Shown here one piece after another: positions 10,006-25,268 of a stretch of DNA of 60,849 nucleotides (positions are counted from its first letter, which is position 1; every line of letters starts with the position of its first letter). The notes below the pieces were generated by a model, which had not been told where the DNA came from, did not search any database, and worked only from the letters and a program-made list of their open reading frames with translations. Location of the stretch: positions 1-60,849 of the IMG/VR virus record IMGVR_UViG_3300007734_000735; one strand, given 5' to 3'. This DNA comes from a virus (lineage: Duplodnaviria > Caudoviricetes). The position numbers and the translations under genes are program-made.

Positions 10006-11421
10006 ATGGCAGAAAGACCTGACCTACAAGAGTTTGGCTCAACTGGTTTACGCCGTTCAGGTGGAACAGTTTATGAAGAATTTCTCGTCAATCTTAGAGG
10101 CATACGCGGTGCAAAGACTTACCGCGAAATGGCAGACAATGACCCAACAATCGGGTCAATGTTGTTTGCAGTTGAAAAAGTTATTACTCGTCTTGAATGG
10201 CGTGTAGACCCATATAGCGATGATTCAGCAGACGGTGAAGTAAATGCTAAAGATAAAGAAGTGGCGGCATTTGTCGAGTCGTGTATTCATGACATGTCCG
10301 ATTCATGGGATGCAACACTTTCACAAATTCTTTCAATGCTTGTATTTGGATTTTCTTATCACGAAATTGTTTACAAAGTCCGTAAGGGTGATGGCAATGA
10401 CCCAAAGAAGCGCTCAAAGCATAATGACGGAAAAATTGGTTGGCGCAAAATGCCTATCCGCGCACAAGAAACTTTATTCCGTTGGGAAATCGATGCAGAC
10501 GGTGGAATTCAAGCCATGTTGCAAGTGGACCCATCAACAGGTGGAATACATACAATTCCAATTGACAAGGCTTTGCTTTTCCGTACAGTAACAACAAAGA
10601 ATAACCCTGAAGGTCGCTCCATTCTTCGTAATGCTTATCGTCCTTGGTTTTTTAAGCGTCGCATTGAAGAAATTGAAGCAATCGGTATTGAGCGTGATTT
10701 AGCAGGATTGCCAGTTGCATACCTACCTCCTGAATATCTTTCTTCATCTGCATCAGCCGAACAACAGGCAGTATTAGCATCAATTCAAAGCATCGTTACA
10801 TCTATCAAGCGTAATGAACAAGAAGGCATTGTGATGCCAGCGATGTACGACGATGCTGGACATAAGATGTTTGACTTGCAGTTGCTTTCATCAGGTGGTT
10901 CTCGTCAGTTCGACACAGACAAGATTATCAATCGCTATGACCAGCGCATGGCAATGTCAATCCTTTCAGACTTTATTCTTCTCGGTTCAGACAGAGTTGG
11001 TTCTTACGCTCTCGGCGCATCCAAGATGGATTTATGGTCAATGGCAGTTGATTCAATTGCTAAGAACATCGCTGAGGTAATGAATCAGTACGCTATTCCT
11101 CGTTTGATGAAGTTGAATGGAATGGACATCTCTCGCGCTCCGTACTTAACTTACGGCGAAGTAAGCCATGTTGATTTAACTGAAATCTCAGACTTTGTAA
11201 CTAAGTTGGCTCAGGCTGGCGTTCTCATGCCTGACCCTAAGTTGGAAGATTATCTTCGCGAGTTGGCAGGTCTACCTCCAGCAGAACACGATGGAACAAA
11301 CTTTGGTATGCCTCCTATGCCTGAAGGTGCAGATAGCGCTGAATTTGATGCACCTCCATCTATGGAAGAAGAGTTAGAGATTCCTGAAGGAGCAGAACCG
11401 CTAGACGGCGATGTGGATTAA
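10006..11421 (+). CDS. Portal protein (Mu gp29/DUF935-like)
   Basis: NPEGRSILRNAY, GIERDLAGLP, GSYALG motifs; size and position. Confidence 0.88.
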   Translation: MAERPDLQEFGSTGLRRSGGTVYEEFLVNLRGIRGAKTYREMADNDPTIGSMLFAVEKVITRLEWRVDPYSDDSADGEVNAKDKEVAAFVESCIHDMSDSWDATLSQILSMLVFGFSYHEIVYKVRKGDGNDPKKRSKHNDGKIGWRKMPIRAQETLFRWEIDADGGIQAMLQVDPSTGGIHTIPIDKALLFRTVTTKNNPEGRSILRNAYRPWFFKRRIEEIEAIGIERDLAGLPVAYLPPEYLSSSASAEQQAVLASIQSIVTSIKRNEQEGIVMPAMYDDAGHKMFDLQLLSSGGSRQFDTDKIINRYDQRMAMSILSDFILLGSDRVGSYALGASKMDLWSMAVDSIAKNIAEVMNQYAIPRLMKLNGMDISRAPYLTYGEVSHVDLTEISDFVTKLAQAGVLMPDPKLEDYLRELAGLPPAEHDGTNFGMPPMPEGADSAEFDAPPSMEEELEIPEGAEPLDGDVD

Positions 11422-11423
11422 AA

Positions 11424-12431
11424 ATGCCTTTACACTTTGGCGGAGACGGAAAGCGTCGTAATCCATTAACGGTAGAGGAACAGGCGTTAGCCCGCGTTCT
11501 CTACGATGCTATTCGTAAATCAACTAACACAATTAAGGTTGAAGAGTTAGCGCGTATTATTAAGCGCCTTGACCCTGATTCTTTGAATCGACTTCTTAAT
11601 GCAATATCTGTTGCTGGAAACAGAAAACAGATTGAGGATGCTTTGATGGCATCTATTGACATAGGCGGGCAACAAGCAGTTCAACAGATTCAATCTATTG
11701 CGCCTAAATTAGCCTTACCTGCATTTATTCCTAAGCCTGTAAAAATTACAAACAAGGCTCCTATGGCTAACATGGATTTTACAAAGATTCCTTCTTGGGC
11801 AAGCCCAACGCCACCTCCAGTTACATTCTCATTGTCATTTAATAAAACAAACCCAAACTCTTTAGCCTTTGCATCTAAAAGAGCAGGGCAGTTGATTACT
11901 AGCATTGATGAATTAACCCGCATAGCAATTCGCAAGATTATTATTGATTCATTTAATGAGCAGTTGGATTATCGTGCTACCGCTCGTCGCATTAAAAACA
12001 TCATTGGATTACATCCCAAGTGGGCAGATGCAGTAACAAAGTTTGAAAAGCGTGAGTTAGAGCGTTTAATTAAAAGCGGAATGAAAGAGGCAAAAGCCCG
12101 CCAAGCATCTGCCGCGTCTGCATCTAAATATGCTGACAGATTACGCGGTGCAAGAGCCACGATGATTGCTCGAACCGAGATTCAGATTGCACAAAACGAG
12201 GGACGCTACGAAGGCTGGAAACAAGCCGATGAAGCAGGTCTCATAGACCCGAGTTCAATGAAGATGTGGAAAACAGCCGAAGATGAGCGCACCTGCGATA
12301 TTTGCGCCCCCCTTGATGGTGAGATTGTTCCTTGGAACGGTTTGTTCTCTATCGGGCTTGAGTTGCCTACTGTTCACCCTAATTGCCGTTGCCAAATGTT
12401 GATTCTTCCTCCTGATAGGGGAACGCTATGA
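11424..12431 (+). CDS. MuF / SPP1 gp7-like minor head protein
   Basis: IARTE...W.T..DERTC..C...HPNCRC. Confidence 0.9.
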   Translation: MPLHFGGDGKRRNPLTVEEQALARVLYDAIRKSTNTIKVEELARIIKRLDPDSLNRLLNAISVAGNRKQIEDALMASIDIGGQQAVQQIQSIAPKLALPAFIPKPVKITNKAPMANMDFTKIPSWASPTPPPVTFSLSFNKTNPNSLAFASKRAGQLITSIDELTRIAIRKIIIDSFNEQLDYRATARRIKNIIGLHPKWADAVTKFEKRELERLIKSGMKEAKARQASAASASKYADRLRGARATMIARTEIQIAQNEGRYEGWKQADEAGLIDPSSMKMWKTAEDERTCDICAPLDGEIVPWNGLFSIGLELPTVHPNCRCQMLILPPDRGTL

Positions 12432-14794
12432 CCCTAGTAATTAAATTTGAACCTGGGCTTCGTCCAGTATTGAAGCATGAGCAACATGACCAAGCCACCC
12501 ACGGCTCATGGGCTAACGGTACTTCTGAATCTTCTCTAATCTCGACTGATACACAAATTGCATTTGCTGAAGGGGCAATCAAAGCAACGGATAACATCTT
12601 GAGTCCAAGTGCCTATAAATCTCAGTTAGAAGGCAATCTTAATAGAACATATCCAAAAATTTATTTAGAAGAAGCGGTGAATAACCCCGCTTATCAGGAT
12701 GCTCTTCAAACACATCTTAAAAGTATTGGGTTTCCTGAAACGGTTAAGGTCTTTTCTAGTAGCGCTCAAGAAGGCGAATACTTCCATGGTTCTGTTGCAC
12801 CTTTGTGGGATTCAGGAGCAGTTGGTTATGAGAGTGAAGAATCACCAAAAGAATTTTTGGTAAACCGCTCAGACATTATTGGACTTGGAAAAGTAGCAGA
12901 TAGTGGAGTTTGGTTTAGAAATTCAAAGACAGTCAAAAAGCACCAAGAACACGACCAAAAGACGCACGGTAACTGGGCTACGGGCGGAGAAATGGAGAGT
13001 TGGAATCCCAACGACCCAATTCCAGCAAGTCCTCGAAACGCTGGAGGAATGACTCAGAAGATTTGGGATAACTGGGAACACGGTGTAGATGGAAATCAAT
13101 ATGTTGAGTTGTATCGCCAATACGCGGGAGAAGCACTTGGAATTGCCGTACCTAAAAGCAGTATGGATGTTGGCGGTAACTTAAATTATTTAACACAGCG
13201 GGGCTTTGGTGGCTCTTCAACGGATACGGTTAGAAAACAAGCCGAAACAATCTTGCAAACAATTGCGAATGGTAAACCTGAGCAACCAGCCTTGTATCGA
13301 GGAATGACCGCTACGGATGCAGATGGTCAAGCCTTATTAAATAGCATCACAAAACTCAAGGCTGGAGATACGCTGGATATGCCTTTAGTTTCAACAACTC
13401 GTTCTTTAGGAGTTGCAACATGGTACGCCACAGACCGCTCAACAAGCGGAACAGGCAATGTAATTATGAAAATCCAACCTGGAGCAAAAGGCGTATCTCT
13501 ATCTAAAGAGACAAGCCGTTATCCACAAGACTACGAAGTTATCACAAGCGGTAAATTTGAAGTGGTAAGCGTAAATACGATTCAGAGTTCTTATTGGCAA
13601 CGAGGCGTCCTTGAGCCTCGCAAAATTAGTTACACGGATGGCTCTGAGTCGCACTATGAAGTTGCTACCTACAGCCCTCGTAGATACAGCCCTGAAGAGG
13701 CAAAGACCATTTATGAAACAGTTACTAGCGGTAAATACAAATCCCTAGAAACCCCTACTTTCAAAATAACCAACGATAGGCACAATAATTACCCTGACCG
13801 ACCTAAACTATCCACATGGGAAAAACAACCAGCGAGGGAGTTTACCGTGGTGGAGGTTAAGTTCATTGAGCCTCATGTTGTTAGAAAGGCTGAGTCCAAA
13901 GATTACGGATTAACCTTTGATTCGTTATTTAATAACATCCCATTCATTCGTGAAGAAGATATGGAAAAGCACCAACAAGGTCTACACGACCAGCGTACTC
14001 ACGGTTCATGGGCTATGGGCGGGGCTGGGGCTGATATTACTGACGAGTTAGATAAAGTGTTTTTTAACAATAAGTTGAATGTCAAAGAGAGTAAAATTTT
14101 TCCTGGAAGTTTAAGAATACCTACTCAAGCGGAAATTGCTCGCGCTGGCATGAATGACGAAACAATCAAACTAATCGAGGAAATGTCTCAAAAACAAATT
14201 GAAAGCGGGCAAGCATACGGAGACAACGCTCTAAAGATTATTGCTGAACGCCAAGGGTTTACTGGCAAACCAAAAACAGTTGCAACTATAGAAGATTTAC
14301 AGAAGATTCAAAGCACCGAGGCTGGCATTTTGGTATATCGCGGAGTTACTGATTATTCAAGAGCGCAAGCATCAGGCGGTGGTTCAGTTCAACCAACTTA
14401 CACAGCCGAACAAGCATTGACTGATTTTAGAGAAGGTGAGTATTTTGGTGGCTGGGGCGTGTTTGGGAATGGAACCTATACAACTCAACGAATAGATGAG
14501 GCTGTTTCCTATTCAGAAACTATGGATTTAGATAATGGAAAACTTGGTAATGGTCGTGTAATGGCAATGCTAATTCCTAAAAATGCAAAGGCGCCTAGCG
14601 AAACTCTTGTAAAAAGTATTGTAAAAGATATGGTTTATGGCGGAGAACCCAGCCATCGCAATAACATTGGCAGAAGGCTTGCCTCCATGGGTTATCAGTA
14701 TTACGATGCTGGTCATGTTCAAAATGATAAATATGGAACTTATGTAATCCTTGATAGGTCAATGCTTACAGTTGCAGAAAAGGCGGTGGGTTGA
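12428..14794 (+). CDS. Tagged polyprotein 1: three KH..HDQxTHGxW modules, two with ART-like domains
   Basis: Tags at 12473, 12938, 13967; ALYRGM..VSTT..QDYEV and LVYRGV..FGNGTY..YVILDR. Confidence 0.7.
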   Translation: MTLVIKFEPGLRPVLKHEQHDQATHGSWANGTSESSLISTDTQIAFAEGAIKATDNILSPSAYKSQLEGNLNRTYPKIYLEEAVNNPAYQDALQTHLKSIGFPETVKVFSSSAQEGEYFHGSVAPLWDSGAVGYESEESPKEFLVNRSDIIGLGKVADSGVWFRNSKTVKKHQEHDQKTHGNWATGGEMESWNPNDPIPASPRNAGGMTQKIWDNWEHGVDGNQYVELYRQYAGEALGIAVPKSSMDVGGNLNYLTQRGFGGSSTDTVRKQAETILQTIANGKPEQPALYRGMTATDADGQALLNSITKLKAGDTLDMPLVSTTRSLGVATWYATDRSTSGTGNVIMKIQPGAKGVSLSKETSRYPQDYEVITSGKFEVVSVNTIQSSYWQRGVLEPRKISYTDGSESHYEVATYSPRRYSPEEAKTIYETVTSGKYKSLETPTFKITNDRHNNYPDRPKLSTWEKQPAREFTVVEVKFIEPHVVRKAESKDYGLTFDSLFNNIPFIREEDMEKHQQGLHDQRTHGSWAMGGAGADITDELDKVFFNNKLNVKESKIFPGSLRIPTQAEIARAGMNDETIKLIEEMSQKQIESGQAYGDNALKIIAERQGFTGKPKTVATIEDLQKIQSTEAGILVYRGVTDYSRAQASGGGSVQPTYTAEQALTDFREGEYFGGWGVFGNGTYTTQRIDEAVSYSETMDLDNGKLGNGRVMAMLIPKNAKAPSETLVKSIVKDMVYGGEPSHRNNIGRRLASMGYQYYDAGHVQNDKYGTYVILDRSMLTVAEKAVG

Positions 14795-15660
14795 TGCTTA
14801 CTCCAGTCCAGTCTCAGCGCTATGCCCAATTGGTAAACAACTTTAAGGAAAAAGAATTCTATGCTTACCATGAGCATCTTCTCGCGGGCGGGAGAGTTGA
14901 AGATTTCTTTGACAAGATGGAAAAGCACGGTACCCATGACCAAAAGACACATGGTTCATGGGCTGATAGTAATTCTTATGATGAGGTCGAGGCAAAGAAT
15001 GAAATCCTTATGGATGAATGGCGAAAAAAATATGGGATATTGAGTGAGTATTTAGAATCCAAAGGCTTGACCCGCTCATGGAATGAAATTCAAGCCGACC
15101 CCAAAGCAAAAAAGATGCAAGAGGCAGTTGATGCAATTTGGAAAAAAATGCAAACAAATCAGAATAAATTTTATGATGAACATTTTGAAAAGAATGAAAC
15201 TGAGGATTTTGATAGGTTAAGAGATAAATATGTTGTTGCCGACACGCCAACTTTGAAAATGAACAAGCAATTGCGTGAGGGTGGGGGACTTACCCAAAGA
15301 GTTAAAGATGCTGACGCCTTGTGTGCCATGGGGGTCGTTAAAGAACGAGTTGGTGTTTACAGGGGAGCATTTCTTCCAAAAGAACTAATCGATACAATTA
15401 AAGTTGGAACTTCATTTACCGATAAAGGTTTTCAGTCTACCGATGTAGATAAATCTTCTGCTCAGTTTTATGCAAGAAGTAGAAAAGAAGGTGGGGCGCA
15501 GGGAGAACTTGTTTTATTCCGTTATACATTAGAAAAGGGATTAAACGCCATTGATGTTAGTTATGGAGAGGTTGTAGTTCAACGAAATGCAACGATAACT
15601 GTAACTAAAAAAACTAAAAGTGGCGAATATACAATTATTGATGCGACGGTGAATAAATGA
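14791..15660 (+). CDS. Tagged VIP2-like ADP-ribosyltransferase
   Basis: Tag at 14923; MNKQLR, VYRG, DKGFQSTD, GEVVVQR. Confidence 0.75.
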   Translation: MMLTPVQSQRYAQLVNNFKEKEFYAYHEHLLAGGRVEDFFDKMEKHGTHDQKTHGSWADSNSYDEVEAKNEILMDEWRKKYGILSEYLESKGLTRSWNEIQADPKAKKMQEAVDAIWKKMQTNQNKFYDEHFEKNETEDFDRLRDKYVVADTPTLKMNKQLREGGGLTQRVKDADALCAMGVVKERVGVYRGAFLPKELIDTIKVGTSFTDKGFQSTDVDKSSAQFYARSRKEGGAQGELVLFRYTLEKGLNAIDVSYGEVVVQRNATITVTKKTKSGEYTIIDATVNK

Positions 15661-16397
15661 ATAAAGAATTACGCGTCACAATGGATGTTGAAGATTTCCT
15701 TTCAATGTTTTCACAAGTTGATTCTTTTGAGAAGCATCAAGAACATGACCAGCAAACTCACGGCAATTGGGCTTCAGGTAATTATGAGAATCTTGCCGAT
15801 TGGTTTAAAGATGAAGTAAAAGTCTTTGCGTCCGAGACAGATAAAGAAGTTTATTTCATGACTAAACTATTTAGCCAACGCCTCAAAGGTTTCACAGAAA
15901 TGGCTTATCCTGAGTTCTCGGGAGCAATAAATAATTATGAAAGTCGTCTTGGTTATGACATGAATGAGGCTTTGCGTGACCCTCAAATAAGTGAAGATGG
16001 CTATAAATCAACTATTGATTTACTTGATAAGGCGATAGAGACCGCTCCTGCATTGAGTGAAGAGTTGGTTGCTTACCGAGGAGTTAAAGGCAACGGATTA
16101 AAGTTTTTTGAAAATCTTAAAGTTGGAGATACTTACCAAGACAAAGGCTACACATCGACAACAATTGATGCTGGAGTTGCTCAACAATTTGGCGGACAAC
16201 AACCGTATTATGACGGTTTAGTTTTCCGTATGAAGTTACCCGCTGGTACAAAAGGAATCTTTCCTGCGGGCTATCACGAACCTGTAAACGGTTGGACACC
16301 ATCTACGACTGAGGCTGAGTTCTTATTACCGAGAGATAGTAAATTTACTATTGTTGCCCAGCGTGGCAAGGTTTGGGATGTAGAGTACAAACCATGA
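15657..16397 (+). CDS. Tagged VIP2-like ADP-ribosyltransferase (ExE motif)
   Basis: Tag at 15732; MNEALR, AYRGV, DKGYTSTT, EAEFLLPR. Confidence 0.85.
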   Translation: MNKELRVTMDVEDFLSMFSQVDSFEKHQEHDQQTHGNWASGNYENLADWFKDEVKVFASETDKEVYFMTKLFSQRLKGFTEMAYPEFSGAINNYESRLGYDMNEALRDPQISEDGYKSTIDLLDKAIETAPALSEELVAYRGVKGNGLKFFENLKVGDTYQDKGYTSTTIDAGVAQQFGGQQPYYDGLVFRMKLPAGTKGIFPAGYHEPVNGWTPSTTEAEFLLPRDSKFTIVAQRGKVWDVEYKP

Positions 16398-18985
16398 ACC
16401 TAGAGAAGTTCCAACACGCATCCTTGAACGGTCTTTCACTTGTACTGGAAAAGCACGGCTCCCACGACCAAAAGACGCACGGTAACTGGGCAAACCTCAC
16501 AGTTGATGGGCAAACAGTTGAAGGCAAAACCATCACGGGCTTGATAGATAAGTTAAGCGAGAAGAAAACTCCAGGATTTAGTATCGACATCCGCACTAAG
16601 CAATCTGCCAAAGATGGCTTTATTGCCTCTGATGTAGGAGCCGAGAGAGTGCTTGATTTCGCCCCTCTGAAGGCTTCTAGGGCGAGTTTGAGGACTGCTT
16701 TGAAGGATTACATCAACGACCATGCTGAGTTGCTTGATAACAAGGGTAGTTTCTTTGGCGCTTGGGTAGAGCAAGGAAAACTTTACTTAGATGTCTCAAG
16801 AAGGTATAATTCTCGGTCAGAGGGTGTACGAGCAGGATTTAGAAACGAACAAAAAGCAATCTACGATGTAGTCAATGACTCGTACATTTACATGAAGGAT
16901 GAGGTCGATGAGCGAACAAACAAAGCCCGTCTTGGTGGAAACTCCGAAGCCAGTCAAGGAAATGACGGAGAAGGAGAAGGACGCCTTCGTGGACGAAATT
17001 TTGCAAGCGATAGAGGGCAATCTCTAAATCGCCATGTCTGCCTTGGCAGATACACAGTACAAAAACACCGAGAAGGCGAGCATGACCAAGCCACACATGG
17101 CAATTGGGCTGGGGATAGATACCCTGTTGATTCAGTTAAGAGCGCTAGAGATGGCGCAAAAGAATACGCTTTCAAAAAAGGCTTAAAACCTGACGAAACA
17201 ATTGATTACACAAAGGTTGTTGCTAATCGCGAACGAGCATCACGCATTGCTGACATCTATGAAACTTTGCCAAAGAAAGATGTTGAAGCAATTGATGAGT
17301 ATGAGGCGCTGGCATCTGAAGTAGAAGAGCAATTCGACTTTATGACCAAGACTCTTGGGGTCAAGGTTGAGTTCGTTGCTACTGACCCATACAGGACATC
17401 TCAGGAAATGTTTCAAGATGTCAGCCGTGGAAACCTTAAAGTTTTGCAAACAGAGACAACAGGCGCACATCCACTTTTCTCAGATGCTCAAAACAATAAA
17501 TTCCGAGCAGTTCACGATTACTTTGGACACGCGGCTACTGGTCGCGGATTTGGTCAAGATGGCGAAGAGTCCGCATGGGTACATCACTCTCAAATGTTTA
17601 CAGAGAAGGCTCGAGCGGCTCTAACTACTGAGACCCGAGGACAAAATTCATTCTTCAATAATCGCGGAAAACAGTTCGCTGACCAAAAGGTTGCCTTGCT
17701 TCCCGAAGAGTTTTGGGCTGTCCCAGCAACATTTCAGAAGATTAAAGTTATTCGTTTTGCCGCTGGATTGAAGCCAGTAATTAAGCACGAACAACACGAC
17801 CAATCTACTCATGGTAGTTGGGCGCGAGGCAATACGGCTGAAGAGGACGCCTTAATTAACGAAATGGAAGGCGTTGGTCCTTCGCTACAAGATTTAGAAA
17901 ATGCTCTGACCCCCGCCGAACAGCCTGACTACACCGACCTAAAAGATTATGTTAAGAATGATGCGGGTATGTACGAGGCAGCAATTGAGGGAATTGAAGA
18001 AAGAATGAAAGAGCGTTATCAGAATTTAACCGAGGATGAATACAATAAAATAAAAGAACGAGAATTAGATATAATGGTTGAAGAATACATTGATAATGAT
18101 GATGGAACCATTGCACAATTATGGCAAGAGCAAAACGGTACTGAGGAATTTAACGCTGAAGAGTTACATCCTTTCTTTGATGAGGTTTATGCCATGAGCC
18201 ATGATGTCTTAAATGCTCAGGGTGAAGTTGCCACAACTCTTAGTTCATCAACAAATAACATTTATCTTGATGGTGAAAGATTAGTTGTAACTGGCGAAAT
18301 TATGGATGATGCTGGTAATTGGGCTGGAGAGTTCCAACGCGGTTTCTTCAAAAGCCAAGATAGAGAAGGCAACGAAATTTGGGCTGTTGAGCATGACTTA
18401 TTCAAAATGGATGATGAATACGCAGGAGTTGGATTTGGCTCAAAGTTTATAGCCCGACAAGAGGCTTGGTATACCGCTGTGGGAATAGGCAGAATTGATG
18501 TAGGCACCGCTTGGGATGGCGCTCGACATTGGGCTAAATCAGGGTATGACTTCGACGAAAGAGGTATGCGCCAAAATGTAAATGAATTGATAAAGGGAAG
18601 AGCATTTAATCCTGATGATTTTGCTGAAGGTTCAGCAAACCGCCTTGAGTTTGATTCTTTAATTTCAAAAATGGTTACTGATTACGACCCAAGTTCGAGG
18701 TCATTTAATTCAACAAAACCAATTAGATTAGATGATTTTCCTATCCCAAACGATTTCTTGATGATTGGCTATAAAGATAGAGTTCAAATAGGCACTAATC
18801 AAATTACAGGAAAGCCTGTCTATTCATGGGCTGGTGCAAGATTGCTGAACAATCTCAACATGAAGTACCAAAAGGGCTTAAGCAAGGAAGGTCGTTCAAT
18901 CACTCAGGGTCCAATTGACCGCGATGGCGATGGCTTGGTTTATGACGGCACCGCTCGCGAAAAGCCCGCTCCTACGGTAAACTAG
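16394..18985 (+). CDS. Tagged polyprotein 2: two unassigned domains plus C-terminal GNAT acetyltransferase
   Basis: ATGA-coupled start 16394; tags at 16451, 17063, 17783; YAGVGFGSKF...GARHWAKSGYDF. Confidence 0.7.
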   Translation: MNLEKFQHASLNGLSLVLEKHGSHDQKTHGNWANLTVDGQTVEGKTITGLIDKLSEKKTPGFSIDIRTKQSAKDGFIASDVGAERVLDFAPLKASRASLRTALKDYINDHAELLDNKGSFFGAWVEQGKLYLDVSRRYNSRSEGVRAGFRNEQKAIYDVVNDSYIYMKDEVDERTNKARLGGNSEASQGNDGEGEGRLRGRNFASDRGQSLNRHVCLGRYTVQKHREGEHDQATHGNWAGDRYPVDSVKSARDGAKEYAFKKGLKPDETIDYTKVVANRERASRIADIYETLPKKDVEAIDEYEALASEVEEQFDFMTKTLGVKVEFVATDPYRTSQEMFQDVSRGNLKVLQTETTGAHPLFSDAQNNKFRAVHDYFGHAATGRGFGQDGEESAWVHHSQMFTEKARAALTTETRGQNSFFNNRGKQFADQKVALLPEEFWAVPATFQKIKVIRFAAGLKPVIKHEQHDQSTHGSWARGNTAEEDALINEMEGVGPSLQDLENALTPAEQPDYTDLKDYVKNDAGMYEAAIEGIEERMKERYQNLTEDEYNKIKERELDIMVEEYIDNDDGTIAQLWQEQNGTEEFNAEELHPFFDEVYAMSHDVLNAQGEVATTLSSSTNNIYLDGERLVVTGEIMDDAGNWAGEFQRGFFKSQDREGNEIWAVEHDLFKMDDEYAGVGFGSKFIARQEAWYTAVGIGRIDVGTAWDGARHWAKSGYDFDERGMRQNVNELIKGRAFNPDDFAEGSANRLEFDSLISKMVTDYDPSSRSFNSTKPIRLDDFPIPNDFLMIGYKDRVQIGTNQITGKPVYSWAGARLLNNLNMKYQKGLSKEGRSITQGPIDRDGDGLVYDGTAREKPAPTVN
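16908..17027 (+). CDS. Nested out-of-frame 39 aa protein (candidate immunity)
   Basis: GAGGT RBS then MSEQTKPVLVETPKPVKEMTEKEKDAFVDEILQAIEGNL*; host frame there is a G/R-rich linker. Confidence 0.5.
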   Translation: MSEQTKPVLVETPKPVKEMTEKEKDAFVDEILQAIEGNL

Positions 18986-19167: not shown

Positions 19168-21375
19168 ATGGCGGATATAGCCCCAAAGTTAATTTCTTTA
19201 AGCGTTGAGAAACTACTCGCGCTTCATGAGCGTATTCATAAGTCTGAAGCCTCTTCAGCAACAATCGAGGTTCACCACACAATTCTCAATGAGTTGGCTC
19301 GTCGCAAGATGGAGGCTCCCAAAGATAATTGGGACGACTTTGAAATTCTTGTTGATTCCATTAACGATGTAGACCTGACATCCTTTGGCTCATCCTTGCC
19401 AGCCGAAATGGTTGCAGAAGTTATTAAATCTAGCGGTAGCAATGTCGGCAATGTGCAGACTTTCCTCACCTCGCAAGGTTATGAAATGCGAATTGAGCCG
19501 ATTGAACTAGACCCTATCGAGAAGATGATTCGCGAAGAAGATGGCGAGTTCACAGTTTATGATTCAACGGGACGACGCAGATTTGGCACTTATCCATCAA
19601 AGAAAAAGGCTGAAGAGCGCCTTGCACAAATTGAAAGATTTTCTAAAGCAGATAACACTCCACCCAAGGCAGTTCGCTCCGCCGCTCGTCGCGCACTTGA
19701 TTGGATTGGCGAAGGTAAGGCTGGTGGAGGATTTACTTCAGTTGGTCGCGCCCGCGCATCGCAGTTGGCTTCAGGAGAATCTGTCTCGTTAGAAACTCTC
19801 AAGCGAATGAAATCTTTTTTCTCACGCCATGAAGTAGATAAGAACGCGCTTGGATTTAGCCAAGGAGAAAAGGGTTATCCATCTCCAGGTCGCGTTGCTT
19901 GGGATGCTTGGGGCGGAGATGCAGGATTCGCATGGGCTGAGTCCATGGTTGCTCGCGCCGAAAGAGAAGAAGAAGTTGCAAAACATAATCCTGGCAAACA
20001 CGACCAAAAAACTCATGGCTCTTGGGCTGATGGCATTGCAGATGCAATCAACAACGGCGAACACCCAATGGTTGAAAAAGAAAATGTTTCGGCGTTTCTA
20101 CTTAAAGCATCAACCCGCACAGACCACCCTGACTTAACTGAATTGAGCATTGAAGGAACATTGCTCTACGGCGATGAAGGTATGGGAATTGCCCGTAAGG
20201 ACATGCCGCAAATTCCTGGCAAAGAACGCGCTCGTTTCTTAGAAGAGATTGAAAAGAGCGATGGCATTACAGTTGAAAAAGAGAAGGTAGACCCAACAAC
20301 CTTAAAACCAATTCAAAAAGAAATCTCTGCCGCTCGCTCAGGTGCTATCTATAAGAAGTTTCAAGAGGATGGCGAGATTCCAAAGAACGAACGCATACTT
20401 ATTTCTAAAGATGGTTTTGTAATCGATGGACACCATACATGGGGCGCCGCGGTTGCTTTTGCTTTTGATAATCCTGGAACTGAGTTGCCTGTCTATCGTT
20501 TATCTGTCACAGCAAAAGAAGCGTTAGCCATCTCATCAAAGTGGTCGAAGGATAATGGTTTTGAGGGTCAAGCAATTGACGCGAAAGAGCCAGCCAAGAA
20601 AAACCTCACATGGCAAACACTTACAAAGCATGGAAATCATGACCAGCGCACCCATGGCTCATGGGCGAATAACATGGTTTCAGACATTGAACCTGAGCAG
20701 GGACAATCAAAAGAAGCCATTGCACTTGCTCGCGCAGTTCGAGAAAAAGCAGTTGCGGCTGAGCCAGTAATCACAAAATTAGTTGAAGGTATTGCAGAGC
20801 AATCAGGTGCAAAACTTGAAGGTCTTTCACAACGCATTAAATCAACAGATTCTCTTGCACGAAAGATTGACCAAGATGCCGAGCAGGGATACCAAGGAGA
20901 TAGAAAGAAAGCGGCTGAAGAAATCTCTGATGCAAACCGTTACACAATCTCAGTCAATGACACAGATTATTTAGATACACTAAATTCTGCTGTTACTGCA
21001 TTTGAGGCAACTGGGTGGAAAGTCCGAGTTAAAAACTTTTGGCAGTCAGGCGACCCTTACGATGGTGTGAACATCAAGGCAGAGCGTGATGGCATTAAAG
21101 TTGAGTTGCAGGTACACACTCCAAAGTCATACCAAACCAAAGAAAAAGCCCTTCACGACATTTACAAGGAATACAGAAAATCTATCGATGATGCAGTCCG
21201 TCGTAGCAATTGGGACAAGATGGTAAGCATTGCTAAGCGGGTTCCTCGCCCAGCCAATTACGCTACCGTTCTTGGAATTGGTTCATTAGTTATTCAGCAA
21301 TTTGAGACCGCTCAACAGGCTGGCTTGATAAAATCAACTGGGGTTGGTAAACTATCCCATGAGGGGAGGGCATAA
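19168..21375 (+). CDS. Tagged polyprotein 3: small head-associated domains, ParB/Srx-like domain, RelA/SpoT small alarmone synthetase
   Basis: Tags at 19981, 20626; VIDGHHTW; RIKSTDSLARKI..DANRY..YDGVN..VELQVHT..H. Confidence 0.8.
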   Translation: MADIAPKLISLSVEKLLALHERIHKSEASSATIEVHHTILNELARRKMEAPKDNWDDFEILVDSINDVDLTSFGSSLPAEMVAEVIKSSGSNVGNVQTFLTSQGYEMRIEPIELDPIEKMIREEDGEFTVYDSTGRRRFGTYPSKKKAEERLAQIERFSKADNTPPKAVRSAARRALDWIGEGKAGGGFTSVGRARASQLASGESVSLETLKRMKSFFSRHEVDKNALGFSQGEKGYPSPGRVAWDAWGGDAGFAWAESMVARAEREEEVAKHNPGKHDQKTHGSWADGIADAINNGEHPMVEKENVSAFLLKASTRTDHPDLTELSIEGTLLYGDEGMGIARKDMPQIPGKERARFLEEIEKSDGITVEKEKVDPTTLKPIQKEISAARSGAIYKKFQEDGEIPKNERILISKDGFVIDGHHTWGAAVAFAFDNPGTELPVYRLSVTAKEALAISSKWSKDNGFEGQAIDAKEPAKKNLTWQTLTKHGNHDQRTHGSWANNMVSDIEPEQGQSKEAIALARAVREKAVAAEPVITKLVEGIAEQSGAKLEGLSQRIKSTDSLARKIDQDAEQGYQGDRKKAAEEISDANRYTISVNDTDYLDTLNSAVTAFEATGWKVRVKNFWQSGDPYDGVNIKAERDGIKVELQVHTPKSYQTKEKALHDIYKEYRKSIDDAVRRSNWDKMVSIAKRVPRPANYATVLGIGSLVIQQFETAQQAGLIKSTGVGKLSHEGRA

Positions 21376-22081
21376 TAAATTGCGATACTTTGTAAACTTT
21401 TACCGTAATAAGCCACATACTCTATGGCGTTTTGATGTTGAGCCTGACCGTGTTCTCGAAGAGCGCTGGGATGGCTTGTCATGGACTCCCACGACCTACA
21501 TCGCCGAGTACCTCATAGATGGCGAAGCAAACATTGATGAGATTACTCCTGAGTTGGCTATGAAAACTTTTCCAGTTGCTTTCAATGATGTTGCTAAATC
21601 TATTGGCGCTTATGAAGTTTCTAAGGCTGAGGGCGAGAAGCGATACACACTAGGGGCTATGTACATCCCTGACCGCCTTGATGCACACAATGAGTGGACA
21701 GATGCCGAGGAGTTGCAAAGAGCAGTTTGGGATTATGTCCGCAGTAATGACCGCCGTATTCGACTACAACACAATCGCGAAATTGTTGCAGGTGAATGGG
21801 TTGAAGTTATGTCATTCCCATACGAATTAACAGTTCCAATTACAACCCCAAGTGGAATTATGGTCAATCACACTTATCCTGCGAACACGGTTTTCCTTGG
21901 TGTTATTTGGGAGGAATGGGCATGGGAGAAGATTCAACGCGGAGAGATTCTTGGCTATTCAATTGGTGGACGAGCAGAGCGCCTATATGTGGACATGGAA
22001 AAGAACGACCCAACTGTTACCGATGTGCATGTTGATACAATTATGAAACCATCGAAAAAGAAGCCAAAGGAAGCCAAATGA
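21359..22081 (+). CDS. XkdF-like prohead serine protease with extra N-terminal domain
   Basis: YIPDRLDAH..EELQRA..LQH..WEKIQRGEILGYSIGG; start uncertain (ATG 21359 or TTG 21380). Confidence 0.8.
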   Translation: MRGGHNKLRYFVNFYRNKPHTLWRFDVEPDRVLEERWDGLSWTPTTYIAEYLIDGEANIDEITPELAMKTFPVAFNDVAKSIGAYEVSKAEGEKRYTLGAMYIPDRLDAHNEWTDAEELQRAVWDYVRSNDRRIRLQHNREIVAGEWVEVMSFPYELTVPITTPSGIMVNHTYPANTVFLGVIWEEWAWEKIQRGEILGYSIGGRAERLYVDMEKNDPTVTDVHVDTIMKPSKKKPKEAK

Positions 22082-22482
22082 AAGACAAAAAGATTCTCAA
22101 AGAACTCCGCAATGGTCCTATGAAAAACATGAAGGACGAGGAGTACGCCATGATTGAAGAAGAAGTCAATCAAAAGGGAATCAAAGGTCTTAAAGGTTAC
22201 GCCAAGTCAATGATTGAAAAGGCTATGCGAGATATGGCTTATTCAATGAAAAAGGCTCTTTCTGTTTCAACAGGTGACATGGTTTCTTGGAATTCATCAG
22301 GTGGCATGGCTACAGGCAAGATTGTCCGTATTGTGCGTGAGGGCAAAATCAATGTTCCTGATTCAAGTTTTGAGATTGAAGGAACCGAAGATGACCCAGC
22401 CGCTTTGATTCAGTTGTACCGCGATGGCAAGCCAACTGAGACAAAAGTTGGACATAAGGTTTCAACACTAAAAAAAGCCTAA
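22078..22482 (+). CDS. Tudor/SH3-like (DUF2945-type) head-region protein; -1 frame extension to 22715
   Basis: GDMVSWNSSGG..GKI..GTEDDPA..VGHK.STL. Confidence 0.7.
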   Translation: MKDKKILKELRNGPMKNMKDEEYAMIEEEVNQKGIKGLKGYAKSMIEKAMRDMAYSMKKALSVSTGDMVSWNSSGGMATGKIVRIVREGKINVPDSSFEIEGTEDDPAALIQLYRDGKPTETKVGHKVSTLKKA

Positions 22483-22711
22483 GCCTAGACAAACATCTAG
22501 GCACCGTTCACGACCAAAAAACTCACGGTGGAAAATACAACACCGATGATGCTGAGGGTGAGGATAGTTCTGAACCAAAGAACTTCAGGGGCAAAAAGCC
22601 AAAGGTAAGTTACGACGAAAACGACACAGACGGTGAGTTCGACAATAACGCCGATGACCCAAAATGGATGGATGACATGGACATCTTGAGACCACCTGCT
22701 AGAAACAAGCG

Positions 22712-22975
22712 ATGAAAACAATTATTGATAGCACAATTGAGATTCTGAGTTCAATGAATCTCAAGGCAAATAAGGTCACAACGCCTCCTGGCTATGCAGG
22801 AATTCAAATTGATTTACCCAACGACTCCCAAGCCTTTTTTGTGTGGAGCAAAATGGATGACGATGACTTCCATTTCAGGACAGCGCGTTTTTGGGCAAAC
22901 GACAATCCTTTTTCAATGTGGATTTGTCCAAACTTGCCCGAGGCTCTAGCCCAAACGAGGGTTTTAATAAACTAA
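22712..22975 (+). CDS. Hypothetical protein
   Basis: 87 aa; ATGA overlap with the frameshift-extension stop. Confidence 0.65.
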   Translation: MKTIIDSTIEILSSMNLKANKVTTPPGYAGIQIDLPNDSQAFFVWSKMDDDDFHFRTARFWANDNPFSMWICPNLPEALAQTRVLIN

Positions 22976-23078
22976 CAAAAGGGTCAAATTACGCTTGTGG
23001 TATTCTTCGTATGTTTAGACCCGATGTAATTTCTTAGCGCGTTGCTAAGGGACTATATCTATTTCGTTAGGAGTCACA

Positions 23079-23876
23079 TTGGCTGGTCGTACTCGTAAGA
23101 TGGTGAATTTAGCCATCGAGGAAACTAGCGGGGTAGACCATCCCGCTCATCTACACGAAGGTTGGCTTGTAATGAAGTCAGCCGAAGAATCTGAAGTTCA
23201 GAGGGTTTTAGACGAATCGCTCACCGAGGAGGACTCCACAATGGAGGATACATCTACCACGGCTACTGAAGAGCAGGTTGTAAATCCTACTGAGGAACTA
23301 ACCATCGCTAAGGCTCGCATCTCTGAACTTGAAGAGGCATTAGCCAAGGCTTCTGCGGACGCTGAAATGTCCGAAGAAGATAAGAAAAAGAAAAAGATGG
23401 AAGAGGAATCCTCTGAGGAGATGGACTACATGAAGTCCGCACCTGAGTCAGTCGTCAAAATGATTGAGAACTTCCGCAAGCAAGCAGAAGAAGCAACCGC
23501 AGAACTTAAAAAAGAACGCGATGCTCATGCTGATGCAGAAGCAGTTGAAAAAGCAAAGAGTTGGGCAAACCTCAATCTCGATGCAGAAAAAGTTGGTCCA
23601 GCACTACGCCGTCTATCAAATGTAGACGCAGAACTAGCAAAGTCAGTTGAAGAACTACTTGCTTCAGTCAATGCACAGGCTGAATCAGCACAAATTTTTG
23701 CGGAAATCGGCAAATCCGCAGACTTCAAATCAGGAAATGCTTATGAGCGTATGACTACGCTTGCTAAGTCAGCCGTTGAAGAGGGTGTAGCAAAGTCATT
23801 CGAGCAAGCGCTCGCTGATGTTGCTACAAAGAACCCTGACCTTTACAGCCAATACCTATCCGAGAAAGGTGCCTAA
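23079..23876 (+). CDS. Capsid scaffolding protein
   Basis: EETSGVDHPA..LVMKS start, acidic coiled coil, C-terminal NPDLY; upstream of capsid genes. Confidence 0.75.
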   Translation: MAGRTRKMVNLAIEETSGVDHPAHLHEGWLVMKSAEESEVQRVLDESLTEEDSTMEDTSTTATEEQVVNPTEELTIAKARISELEEALAKASADAEMSEEDKKKKKMEEESSEEMDYMKSAPESVVKMIENFRKQAEEATAELKKERDAHADAEAVEKAKSWANLNLDAEKVGPALRRLSNVDAELAKSVEELLASVNAQAESAQIFAEIGKSADFKSGNAYERMTTLAKSAVEEGVAKSFEQALADVATKNPDLYSQYLSEKGA

Positions 23877-24290: not shown

Positions 24291-25268
24291 ATGCCACAGC
24301 CACACATTAACTCCGTCCATGTGGACGCAATTCTGACTAACATCTCAGTTGCATACCTACAAAATCAGGACAATTTCATTGCAGACAAAGTATTCCCAGT
24401 AATTCCTGTGGATAAGAAGTCTGACAAGTATTTCACTTACACCAAGAACGATTGGTTCCGCGATGAGGCTCAACGCCGTGCGCCTGGAACTGAATCTGCT
24501 GGTGGCGGATACAACCTATCAACAGGCACATACTCAGCAGATGTATGGGCTTTCCACAAGGATGTAGACGACCAAACAACTGCAAACGCAGACGCACCTT
24601 TGAACCCTCTTCGTGAGGCAACAGAGTTCGTAACTCGTCGCTTGATGCTCCGTCGTGAACTTCAGTTCGTAACTGATTTCTTCACAACAGGTGTATGGGC
24701 AGACGATGTAACTGGCGTCTCAGGCGCTCCATCTTCAGGTCAGACAAAGCAATGGTCAGACTACACAGCATCAGACCCAATTTCAGACATCGAAGCGGCA
24801 AAGGCTGAGATTCTTGGAAACACAGGTATGGAAGCAAACACTCTTGTTCTTGGATACGATGTATTCAAGTCACTCAAGAATCACCCTGACTTGGTAGACC
24901 GTATCAAGTACACATCGGCTCAGACAATTACAACAGACATGATTGCGGCAATGTTCGACATTCCTCGCGTCATGGTTGCTAAGGCTGTCAAGGCTACAAA
25001 CAACGAGGGTGCATCAGAGGCTTACGGCTTTGCTTATGGCAAAGGCGCACTTCTAACACATGTTGCTCCAAACCCAGGACTACTAACTCCTTCTGCTGGA
25101 TACACATTCTCATGGACTGGCGTATCAGGCGGACTTGGACAGACAATTGGAACATCACAGTTCCGTATGGAATCAATCAAGGCGGACCGTATCGAAGCAG
25201 AAATGGCTTTCGATAACAAGGTAATTGCATCTGACCTCGGTTATTTCTGGAACACAATCGTCGCTTAA
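24291..25268 (+). CDS. Major capsid protein
   Basis: LTNISVAY..FIADKVFP, W.D..SDPI.DI; followed by terminator. Confidence 0.88.
   Translation: MPQPHINSVHVDAILTNISVAYLQNQDNFIADKVFPVIPVDKKSDKYFTYTKNDWFRDEAQRRAPGTESAGGGYNLSTGTYSADVWAFHKDVDDQTTANADAPLNPLREATEFVTRRLMLRRELQFVTDFFTTGVWADDVTGVSGAPSSGQTKQWSDYTASDPISDIEAAKAEILGNTGMEANTLVLGYDVFKSLKNHPDLVDRIKYTSAQTITTDMIAAMFDIPRVMVAKAVKATNNEGASEAYGFAYGKGALLTHVAPNPGLLTPSAGYTFSWTGVSGGLGQTIGTSQFRMESIKADRIEAEMAFDNKVIASDLGYFWNTIVA

Follow-up and report, generated by a model that had tools for sequence, protein, structure and literature searches.

Recurrent hydrophobic-x-lysine sites in the scaffold, XkdF-type prohead protease and tagged effector polyproteins of a tailed virus point to a putative common cleavage rule

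The prohead cleavage motif of phage T4 is L/I-x-E. In T4 (gp21, with capsid targeting sequences on internal proteins and Alt) and in the giant phage SPN3US (gp245), one prohead protease and one short motif serve to process scaffold or core proteins, the protease itself and ejected proteins, including an ADP-ribosyltransferase (ART); propeptides of this type carry several copies of the motif, and the cut comes after Glu, at A-x-E (PMC10052503). The capsid cleavage site of HK97 is K103/S104 (PMC10275583, 2023). The HK97 gp5 sequence around the cut reads ...AKTFNK|SLGSDADSAG (a vertical stroke marks a proven or presumed cut), so that the proven cut, FNK|S, is itself a phi-x-K|S site, phi being a hydrophobic residue. 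In the excerpts of a 2022 preprint on actinobacteriophage capsids drawn on here, the delta-domain cleavage site is described as unpredictable, and a full-text literature search returned, among the matches listed for papers naming XkdF or PF14550, no paper on XkdF cleavage specificity. Here we analyze a 60,849-base stretch of viral DNA (Duplodnaviria; Caudoviricetes), referred to as the window, which is the complete virus record IMGVR_UViG_3300007734_000735 (CheckV completeness 100%). Its head module encodes an XkdF-type prohead serine protease, a scaffolding protein and five open reading frames (ORFs) that carry a recurrent peptide, which we call the tag. Sites of the form phi-x-K recur in all of these, which suggests that the protease may cut after Lys.

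The signal is clearest in the scaffold, and the genes and scaffold sites concerned are listed below, with the share of sequences that keep the motif in brackets.

21344..22081, + strand: XkdF-type prohead serine protease (PF14550, Peptidase_S78_2, E 9.3e-13)
23079..23876, + strand: scaffolding protein, 265 residues, nine phi-x-K-[SA] sites (phrog_13547)
23169..23180, + strand: scaffold VMK33|S, after the conserved N-terminal motif SGVDHPAHLHEGW (57/57)
23304..23315, + strand: scaffold IAK78|A, variable acidic region (14%)
23340..23351, + strand: scaffold LAK90|A, variable region (14%)
23427..23438, + strand: scaffold YMK119|S (100%)
23544..23555, + strand: scaffold VEK158|A (98%)
23634..23645, + strand: scaffold LAK188|S (100%)
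23706..23717, + strand: scaffold IGK212|S (100%)
23760..23771, + strand: scaffold LAK230|S (100%)
23787..23798, + strand: scaffold VAK239|S (89%)

Nine phi-x-K-[SA] sites stand against about 1.3-1.4 expected, a count reached in none of 300 and none of 1000 composition-keeping shuffles. When all 20 residues were tried at P1, only Lys was enriched (z 7.0), Glu being abundant but not enriched, and Ser was the top residue at P1'. Cutting all nine sites would leave pieces of 9-45 residues. A preliminary description of this DNA, which proposed that the XkdF-like protease cuts after Lys, had named seven of these scaffold sites; all seven are present, IAKA at K78 and a second LAKS are added to them, and the excess is strong (9 versus 1.4). 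The enrichment test that it had proposed for the head operon also gave a clear excess when counted per lysine: the protease, the TUDOR-domain ORF, o87 and the scaffold together have 15 of 62 lysines in such sites versus 52 of 755 elsewhere (odds ratio 4.3, p 5e-5). The TUDOR ORF (22078-22482) alone holds four sites versus 0.83 expected, a number reached in 16 of 2000 shuffles. The portal, MuF, decoration-like and capsid proteins show no excess (five sites versus 3.6 expected; 5/69 lysines).

This excess of phi-x-K-[SA] follows the protease family. The gp24 scaffold of phage Laroye, about 40% identical to that of the window, has eight sites versus 1.17 expected, and three proteins of cultured phages in which an XkdF protease is fused to a scaffold, gp34 of Lactococcus phage 98201, gp58 of Bacillus phage BMBtp14 and gp5 of phage 0105phi7-2, have 10 versus 1.83, 13 versus 1.63 and 10 versus 1.73, respectively, none of these four counts being reached in 1000 shuffles. 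The HK97 delta domain contains four sites versus about 0.6 expected (4/2000 and 0/1000 shuffles), and the 282-residue mature part contains none. There is no excess in the scaffolds of phages without an S78-type protease, namely P22 gp8 (1 versus 1.06), SPP1 gp11 (1 versus 0.95), T7 gp9 (2 versus 0.46) and lambda Nu3 (0 versus 0.24). The capsid protein of 0105phi7-2 starts MTLNNKTIIEK11-A12, and in the parts of the virion data drawn on here, which come from tryptic digests, residues 1-10 are uncovered, many spectra cover residues 12-38 and K11 is retained in few. Given that trypsin was used, these data fit a cut at K11|A12 and are no proof of it.

The N-terminus of the scaffold (23079-23180, TSGVDHPAHLHEGWLVMK|S) is identical in Laroye except for two residues and resembles, by eye, the N-terminal motif of the XkdF protease-scaffold fusions, VSYVDKAANKKQFFLTK|S. 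This resemblance comes from visual inspection alone, as a BLASTP comparison of the scaffold with BMBtp14 gp58 was not significant. The window seems to have split a single protease-scaffold gene into a protease ORF and a scaffold ORF, to judge from these sequences, and the scaffold motif might pair with the protease in trans.

The protease gene sits in the head module between portal/MuF and scaffold/capsid, and its product matches PF14550, which is named as a family related to the HK97 prohead protease, over residues 91-213 (48.7 bits, gathering cut-off 24). A small N-terminal domain (about residues 11-82) is followed by a linker and the protease domain. Ser206 (in GYSIGG), His115 and His143 are invariant in 31 homologues, and Ser206 is the likely nucleophile, with His115 and His143 as candidates for its catalytic partner. 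Three candidate sites lie around the catalytic domain:

21590..21601, + strand: protease VAK85|S, disordered linker (Lys in at least 90% of 31 sequences)
21617..21628, + strand: protease VSK94|A (Lys invariant in 31 sequences)
21995..22006, + strand: protease MEK220|N (Lys invariant in 31 sequences)

Both K85 and K94 fall in a linker with a predicted local distance difference test score (pLDDT) below 50, between the confidently modelled small N-terminal domain and the protease domain. In the alignment with BMBtp14 gp58 (E 8e-18), VSK94|A is matched by ITK47|S, and the corresponding junction of Laroye gp18 reads LTK|A and follows a domain that its record labels RNA ligase. In the tag-bearing protein P0018, the XkdF domain (E 3.5e-31) runs straight into a tag, GYSVGG...LEIEK|HGDHDQ, the Lys of which lies after the catalytic-Ser motif and within two residues of the position of K220 in the window. 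The sites that had been proposed around the protease domain (VAKS, VSKA and MEKN) are all there, and K94 and K220 are invariant, but by count the excess of phi-x-K-[SA] is weak (two versus 0.5 expected; reached in 22/300 shuffles). A Foldseek search with the AlphaFold2 model of the protease gave nothing at E<=0.001, and an hhalign alignment with HK97 gp4 covered only the Ser motif, GYS206IG with GMS114VG (probability 0.3%).

The listed start of the protease gene is a TTG that overlaps the end of the preceding ORF by 32 bases in another frame (21344-21375); an ATG lies five codons downstream, at 21359. The C-terminal tail DVHVDTIM (22020-22043) resembles SVHVDAIL in the N-arm of the capsid protein (24312-24335), and both motifs are kept in 77/77 loci with both genes, with no clear co-variation. 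Judging by this resemblance, the tail may mimic the capsid N-arm and so bring the protease into the shell.

Between the MuF and protease genes, ten strict tags of the form phi-x-K-H-x(2|4)-HDQxTHG(S/N)WA are spread across five ORFs, which are mostly without a Pfam name, the exception being the ART at 15657-16397, which also matches the Alt-like family phrog_802 (E 1.2e-5). The ORFs and their tags, with an eleventh, degenerate tag, are:

12428..14794, + strand: Polyprotein 1 (PP1), 788 residues, three tags at Lys 16, 171 and 514 (by tag pattern)
12467..12514, + strand: tag 1, VLK|HEQHDQATHGSWA (ORF 12428-14794)
12932..12979, + strand: tag 2, VKK|HQEHDQKTHGNWA (ORF 12428-14794)
13961..14014, + strand: tag 3, MEK|HQQGLHDQRTHGSWA (ORF 12428-14794)
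14791..15660, + strand: tagged effector ORF, 289 residues, one tag at Lys 45 (by tag pattern)
14917..14964, + strand: tag 4, MEK|HGTHDQKTHGSWA (ORF 14791-15660)
15657..16397, + strand: tagged ART, 246 residues, one tag at Lys 26 (PF03496, E 4.1e-16)
15726..15773, + strand: tag 5, FEK|HQEHDQQTHGNWA (ORF 15657-16397)
16373..18985, + strand: Polyprotein 2 (PP2), 870 residues, three tags at Lys 27, 231 and 471 (by tag pattern)
16445..16492, + strand: tag 6, LEK|HGSHDQKTHGNWA (ORF 16373-18985)
17057..17110, + strand: tag 7, VQK|HREGEHDQATHGNWA (ORF 16373-18985)
17777..17824, + strand: tag 8, VIK|HEQHDQSTHGSWA (ORF 16373-18985)
19168..21375, + strand: Polyprotein 3 (PP3), 735 residues (phrog_2859; AlphaFold2 model; Foldseek 8vx3, E 7.8e-9)
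19975..20028, + strand: tag 9 (PP3 Lys272), VAK|HNPGKHDQKTHGSWA, in the pLDDT<50 linker 269-284
20620..20667, + strand: tag 10 (PP3 Lys487), LTK|HGNHDQRTHGSWA, in the pLDDT<50 linker 467-503
22485..22538, + strand: tag 11, degenerate, LDK|HLGTVHDQKTHGGKY, -1 frame, no start codon

All of the tripeptides that had been reported in front of the tags (VLK to LDK) are present; ten belong to strict tags, and the eleventh (LDK|HLGTVHDQKTHGG, nt 22485-22538) is real but degenerate, scoring 19.4 bits versus 46-55 for the others. The five tagged ORFs contain ten phi-x-K-H sites versus 1.3 expected, and none of 300 shuffles reaches ten. Within the tags of the window, synonymous codons vary (CAT/CAC 5:5, CAA/CAG 7:3, four Thr codons), which indicates selection on the peptide and not a DNA repeat. 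A DNA-level recombination repeat was likewise considered and rejected, as synonymous codons vary freely.

For a broader view of the tag, 191 related viral loci were collected, 80 of them fetched by scaffold homology, which is blind to the tag, and 111 by a pattern requiring K-H in at least one tag. In the 80 scaffold-homology loci, K-H precedes HDQ in 97/97 unique tags, with V, I, L, M or F at P3 in 95; over all 191 loci, K-H is found in 355/355 unique tags and P3 is hydrophobic in 311. A profile built from 112 tags found 857 proteins at E<=0.001, 264 of them at E<=1e-10, among 1.84 billion cluster representatives (50% identity clusters). The best 150 of these 857 proteins contain 372 tags with an upstream His, and in 352 of them this His directly follows a Lys. 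A first tag behind a leader opens 89/150 proteins, its Lys never lying before residue 9, as would be expected if residues on the P side were required. Conservation extends to several types of leader, one of which reads MKVIKFAPGLIPVLK|H. The residues H, H, D, Q, H, G and W of the tag alignment are invariant. The distance from K-H to HDQ is two or four residues, rarely 3, 5 or 6, while K and H are always adjacent, and this constant adjacency with a variable distance to HDQ makes the tag look bipartite.

Pfam was run on 97 of the best 150 tag-bearing proteins. ADP-ribosyltransferase families occur in 30 of them, GNAT in eight, zincin-like peptidases (SprT-like or DUF6782 metallopeptidase) in five, and fused XkdF and fused MuF in two each; 47 have no Pfam family. 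The domains that follow tags are of unrelated folds (ART, GNAT, NUDIX, alarmone synthetase). P0004, of 2201 residues, has nine ART domains, and eight of its modules are each preceded by a strict tag. In P0018, P0084, L184 and L091, an XkdF or S78 domain is joined directly to tags, and MuF-tag fusions occur in loci L130 and L192. An XkdF-type protease accompanies tags in 93 loci and two further records, and a canonical Peptidase_S78 with an HK97-type capsid does so in L184, L091, L180, L084 and one complete record; protease and tags lie within one ORF in L184 and L091. Every tag-bearing record in which a prohead protease was found has S78_2 or S78. No S78-type protease was found in two of five further tag-bearing records, rated 46% and 38% complete.

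Outside viral contigs and proteins, the K-H tag pattern matched six stretches in 185,579 species-representative prokaryote genomes, three of them in Actinomycetota metagenome-assembled genomes according to the record title. Four tag segments and the scaffold N-terminus gave only noise against Pfam at E<=10, which places the tag in no Pfam family; the tag strings were absent from the 8.4 million full texts searched; and a tblastn search of cultured phage records with a 39-residue leader plus tag returned just two tail-fibre matches (E=5).

In PP3, an N-terminal region, a tag, a middle module, a second tag, a small-alarmone-synthetase-like module and a short tail follow one another. The AlphaFold2 model (mean pLDDT 73) has stretches below 50 at residues 269-284, 334-344, 467-503 and 722-735, and K272, K487 and K722 lie in or at the edge of such stretches; in the model, neither tag is ordered or packs against the domain behind it. 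One further site stands out:

21325..21336, + strand: PP3 LIK722|S, start of the disordered 13-residue C-terminal tail (motif in 44/45 homologues)

With seven phi-x-K-[SA] sites versus 2.6 expected (reached in 6/300 shuffles), the excess in PP3 is borderline. Besides K722, the sites first listed for PP3 are IHKS at K25, VIKS at K87, IEKM at K119 and FSKA at K160, the motif being kept in 44/45 homologues at K25 and in 11/45 at K160. The preliminary description had placed all five at apparent domain borders; this holds for K722 and less clearly for K160, but not for K25, K87 and K119, which are in helices or at their ends in the model. The unit of tag plus middle module is found in just 11/45 PP3 homologues, so that tags mark cassette borders. 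The last module is predicted to have a small-alarmone-synthetase fold (best Foldseek match 8vx3, as listed above; also Tas1) and shares about 36% identity with the C-terminal domain found in MuF proteins of Streptococcus phages. The middle module (20029-20619, residues about 288-484) holds a DGHHTWGAA stretch and looks ParB-like by eye; loci L101 and L139 instead carry a module like it joined in-frame to the protease.

We propose that one HK97-type prohead serine protease (XkdF/Peptidase_S78_2, 21344-22081) could do three jobs inside the procapsid, cutting after Lys in accessible places with a hydrophobic residue at P3 (or P2) and a small or polar residue next. Cuts at as many as nine phi-x-K|S/A sites would break the scaffold into pieces of at most 45 residues that could leave the shell; self-cleavage at the invariant sites VSK94|A and MEK220|N would release the catalytic domain; and cuts in the five tagged ORFs would fall at the K|H with which each tag begins. 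This last step would yield about eleven effector modules, including ADP-ribosyltransferases and a small-alarmone-synthetase-like enzyme, free in the head and each keeping an N-terminal H-x(2-4)-HDQ-x-T-H-G-x-W-A peptide. In such a bipartite tag, phi-x-K-H would be the scissile part, followed by a linker of variable length, and HDQxxHGxW would be a docking or capsid-loading element.

We consider this explanation, taken as a whole, to have slightly better than an even chance. Scaffold cleavage after Lys is strongly inferred from the HK97 precedent and is quite likely; self-release of the protease at K94 and K220 is probable, though less so; and the putative cutting of tags at K|H is plausible, with the balance tipping only just in its favor. 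Given that 13 conserved residues follow the tag Lys, more than a cleavage site needs, the tag must do more than be cut, and its second half, conserved beyond what cleavage would explain, may dock the cargo to some component of the procapsid. As a specific role for HDQxxHGxW, docking is a tentative suggestion from conservation to which we give somewhat less than an even chance. It can further be speculated that the tag is a portable "load and release" signal, in which HDQxxHGxW docks a protein into the procapsid, the cut at phi-x-K|H frees single effectors, and the units form exchangeable cassettes of a large class of injected anti-host enzymes. This extension is doubtful, as is, to the same degree, the idea that docking would go through the protease, the His/Trp-rich N-terminal motif of the scaffold or the shell interior. 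Chains of up to 20 tag matches, the nine ART domains and the fusions to protease, MuF and portal would be its cassette examples. The enrichment, the conservation and the controls stand regardless of whether the tags are cleaved.

Several observations weigh against the proposal. The cutting of tags is something that we infer, and in the four tagged ORFs other than PP3 the six phi-x-K-[SA] sites outside tags are no excess, Lys not being among the five most enriched P1 residues there. The long conserved stretch after the tag Lys goes far beyond what cleavage requires, and the invariant His at P1' of the tags differs from the S/A of the scaffold sites. In 43 of the 355 unique tags, P3 is S, A, G or T with a hydrophobic or beta-branched P2; a second tag-bearing lineage, of the S78 type, combines a small P3 with a hydrophobic P2. 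Y, F, L or E replaces the Lys in 20 of the 372 tags with an upstream His (best 150 of 857 proteins), and a third lineage (P0064, P0074, L205) has K-x-[Y/F]-H or K-Y-H before HDQ, some of its tags being without K-H altogether. S78-type proteases are common in tailed phages, so their co-occurrence with tags is weak evidence. At the invariant K220 the P1' residue may be N, G, S, E or D, and the catalytic domain of the protease model has a mean pLDDT of 56.8. In PP3, K87 is followed by S, A or H in only 25/45 homologues, and the model puts K25, K87 and K119 within helices or at helix ends, in blocks of ten residues whose mean pLDDT is 71-88. The few 0105phi7-2 spectra that retain K11 could, within the data drawn on, mean a cut after E10. 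The rest of the window, finally, shows a mild background excess of phi-x-K-[SA] (50 versus 35 expected; 3/300 shuffles). The view that an XkdF-like protease cuts after Lys is well supported for the scaffold by analogy (S78_2 family, K|S in HK97, enrichment, invariant phi-x-K sites around the protease domain), but the code is looser than first described, given the range of P1' residues at K220, the small P3 of the second lineage and the Tyr or Phe before His in the third.

Some of these points can be read differently. The tag may be an uncut cargo-loading (capsid-targeting) peptide on polyproteins that stay whole, with a Lys code that is real for scaffold and protease and irrelevant to the tags. 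Conserved residues after the Lys, an invariant His and a position in disordered linkers are what a short linear binding motif usually shows; extra Lys sites are missing from the four other tagged ORFs, one lineage replaces Lys by Tyr or Phe, and, in the text of PMC5512222 drawn on here, head-packaged polyvalent proteins have 2-15 domains and the N4 virion RNA polymerase is packaged unprocessed. However, the fixed K-H pair at a variable distance from HDQ suggests a pair of sub-motifs and not a single one, tags that come first in an ORF still keep phi-x-K, with Lys never closer than residue 9, and the tag Lys of P0018 nearly coincides with the invariant K220 position. A chain of 7059 (P0003) or 2201 residues (P0004) would also be hard to eject uncut through the tail, and we regard whole, uncut polyproteins as unlikely. 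P0003 has 20 stretches matching the tag profile, three of them of the strict pattern.

If the tags are cut, another enzyme might do it, either the zincin-like peptidase of some polyproteins or a host protease after injection, with release in the target cell. Such metallopeptidase matches occur in 5/97 scanned proteins, and Iyer et al., in the parts of PMC5512222 drawn on, propose autoproteolysis by domains of this kind in polyvalent proteins; but 92/97 and all five tagged ORFs of the window have no such domain, the P3-P1 pattern of the tags is the one enriched in scaffolds tied to S78-type proteases, and tags are fused directly to XkdF/S78 domains in four cases, which makes another enzyme improbable. 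About as poorly placed, and a shade less credible, is the view that the tag, with its three His, one Asp and one Trp, is a small cap, metal-binding or structural, on the N-terminal edge of each module, unrelated to proteolysis or packaging and providing junctions for module swaps. The seven invariant residues and the patchy occurrence of the tag-module unit among PP3 homologues, which suggests cassette borders, would agree with a cap. Against it, the tags are modelled as disordered and not packed on the next domain, the spacing of the first His varies, the domains that follow are unrelated folds, freely varying codons speak against a DNA-level recombination repeat, and tags are confined to head modules with S78-type proteases. 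The phi-x-K-[SA] excess itself could be a by-product of amphipathic-helix periodicity and a composition rich in Lys, Ala and Ser, the scaffolds being helical and the rest of the window mildly enriched as well. Composition-keeping shuffles nevertheless never reached the scaffold count in 1000 trials, Lys alone is enriched at P1 despite abundant Glu, and one of the four HK97 motif copies is the proven cut. Nor can helix periodicity be the main cause, as four scaffolds that are also helical, but come from phages lacking an S78-type protease, show no excess; we give a mere by-product hardly any credence.

The rest of the head module, all on the + strand, runs from portal and MuF through the five tagged ORFs, protease, TUDOR ORF, scaffold and a decoration-like ORF to the capsid gene:

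10006..11421, + strand: Mu-type portal protein (PF06074, E 3.4e-42; phrog_113)
11424..12431, + strand: MuF-like head morphogenesis protein, separate 335-residue ORF without effector fusion (PF04233, E 9e-15)
22078..22482, + strand: Hva1_TUDOR-domain ORF, short form (PF11160, E 4.4e-8)
22470..22476, + strand: A7 slippery run at the end of the TUDOR ORF, candidate site of -1 frameshift or transcriptional slippage
22477..22715, + strand: -1 frame extension of the TUDOR protein, tag plus acidic tail (in-frame in some relatives)
24291..25268, + strand: major capsid protein, lambda-E-like, without delta domain (phrog_1005, PF03864)

Tag 11 follows the TUDOR stop codon in the -1 frame, so that only a -1 shift at the A7 run gives access to it. 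Among 62 unique TUDOR junctions (from 91 loci), 47 have the -1 arrangement with an A-run of at least six, and 12 have both parts in one frame, of which four (L016, L062, L043 and L113) can be read as one continuous TUDOR-tag-tail ORF. Such a pattern suggests that programmed -1 frameshifting or transcriptional slippage may produce a minor long form of the TUDOR protein. The closest cultured relatives of the window are Arthrobacter phages of the Laroye group (scaffold about 40%, protease about 53% identical), and a megablast search of 19168-23876 against phage records gave no match.

Head modules of other tag-bearing phages show further arrangements. In the S78-type tag phages L184 (8051-8593) and L091 (8361-8897), a ferritin-like gene (PF00210) lies between the capsid gene and further tagged effector ORFs. 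An 801-residue ORF in L084 (1733-4135, - strand) joins Hva1_TUDOR, Peptidase_S78 and HK97-type capsid domains, with a tagged ART ORF downstream. In L205 (943-3135, - strand), a Mu-type portal protein carries a degenerate tag and an extra domain at its C-terminus. No relatives of P0064 were found in viral contigs, where its DNA pattern had 0 matches; elsewhere the pattern matched one 4.6 kb metagenome locus, which ends before the protease.

If the Lys rule is true, the cleavage sites of the very common HK97/XkdF-type prohead proteases could be predicted from sequence. If the tag is a loading-and-release signal, it would offer a sequence handle for finding phage proteins that are injected with DNA, and the 857 protein clusters, with about half of the 97 scanned proteins having no Pfam family, would then be a pool of candidate anti-defence or host-takeover enzymes. 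A further use of the tag might be as a short peptide that directs foreign proteins into HK97-fold capsids.

Compared with known systems, the locus shares single traits with each. The polyvalent proteins described by Iyer et al. in 2017 (PMC5512222), as far as the portions drawn on show, likewise have many effector domains per polypeptide, have portal and MuF genes as neighbours and are predicted to enter the head and be injected, and ART, ParB-like and zincin-like domains recur among them. In the window, PP3 is modelled as separate folded modules, PP1 and PP2 have three tags each, and the genes stand beside portal and MuF. Unlike the self-processing by internal peptidase domains proposed in that source, however, the window polyproteins contain no such domain by Pfam (E<=0.01), and in PMC5512222 the word "linker" is absent from the text and no inter-domain tag was seen in 12 of 18 places, within the portions drawn on. 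MuF polymorphic toxins (Jamet et al., 2017, PMC5576092) are also head-associated and encoded beside the portal gene, but there the toxin is fused to MuF, whereas the MuF of the window is a separate ORF and none of the five tagged ORFs matches PF04233; the translated Streptococcus phage MuF protein contains no tag, and PMC5576092 no word starting with "cleav".

The T4 gp21/SPN3US systems cut after Glu and remove an N-terminal propeptide, whereas the window has Lys at P1, and its conserved peptide follows the presumed cut, stays on the effector and repeats in chains of up to 20 units. Capsid targeting of the T4 type therefore does not describe the window, where the enriched P1 residue is Lys, not Glu, and the conserved peptide is internal and repeated. 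The XkdF fusions (BMBtp14 gp58, 0105phi7-2 gp5 and 98201 gp34) are alike in their homologous protease domain (E 8e-18), their phi-x-K-[SA] excess, a site just before the protease domain and, by eye, the N-terminal motif VS(Y/I)VDKAANKK.FFLTK|S, to be compared with TSGVDHPAHLHEGWLVMK|S of the window scaffold; they differ in holding N-terminal motif, protease and scaffold in one protein rather than two ORFs, and in lacking tags and effector polyproteins. HK97 (gp4 and the gp5 delta domain) agrees with the window in having a protease of an S78-named Pfam family (PF04586 in HK97, PF14550 here), Lys at P1, a hydrophobic P3 and a small P1' (FNK|S), and motif copies in the scaffolding part with none in its mature shell protein. 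In the window, unlike HK97, the scaffold is a separate protein and the protease is of the XkdF subtype, and HK97 has neither packaged effector polyproteins nor the tag. The tag itself appears to be undescribed, and a cut after Lys by the XkdF subtype would extend the precedent of HK97.

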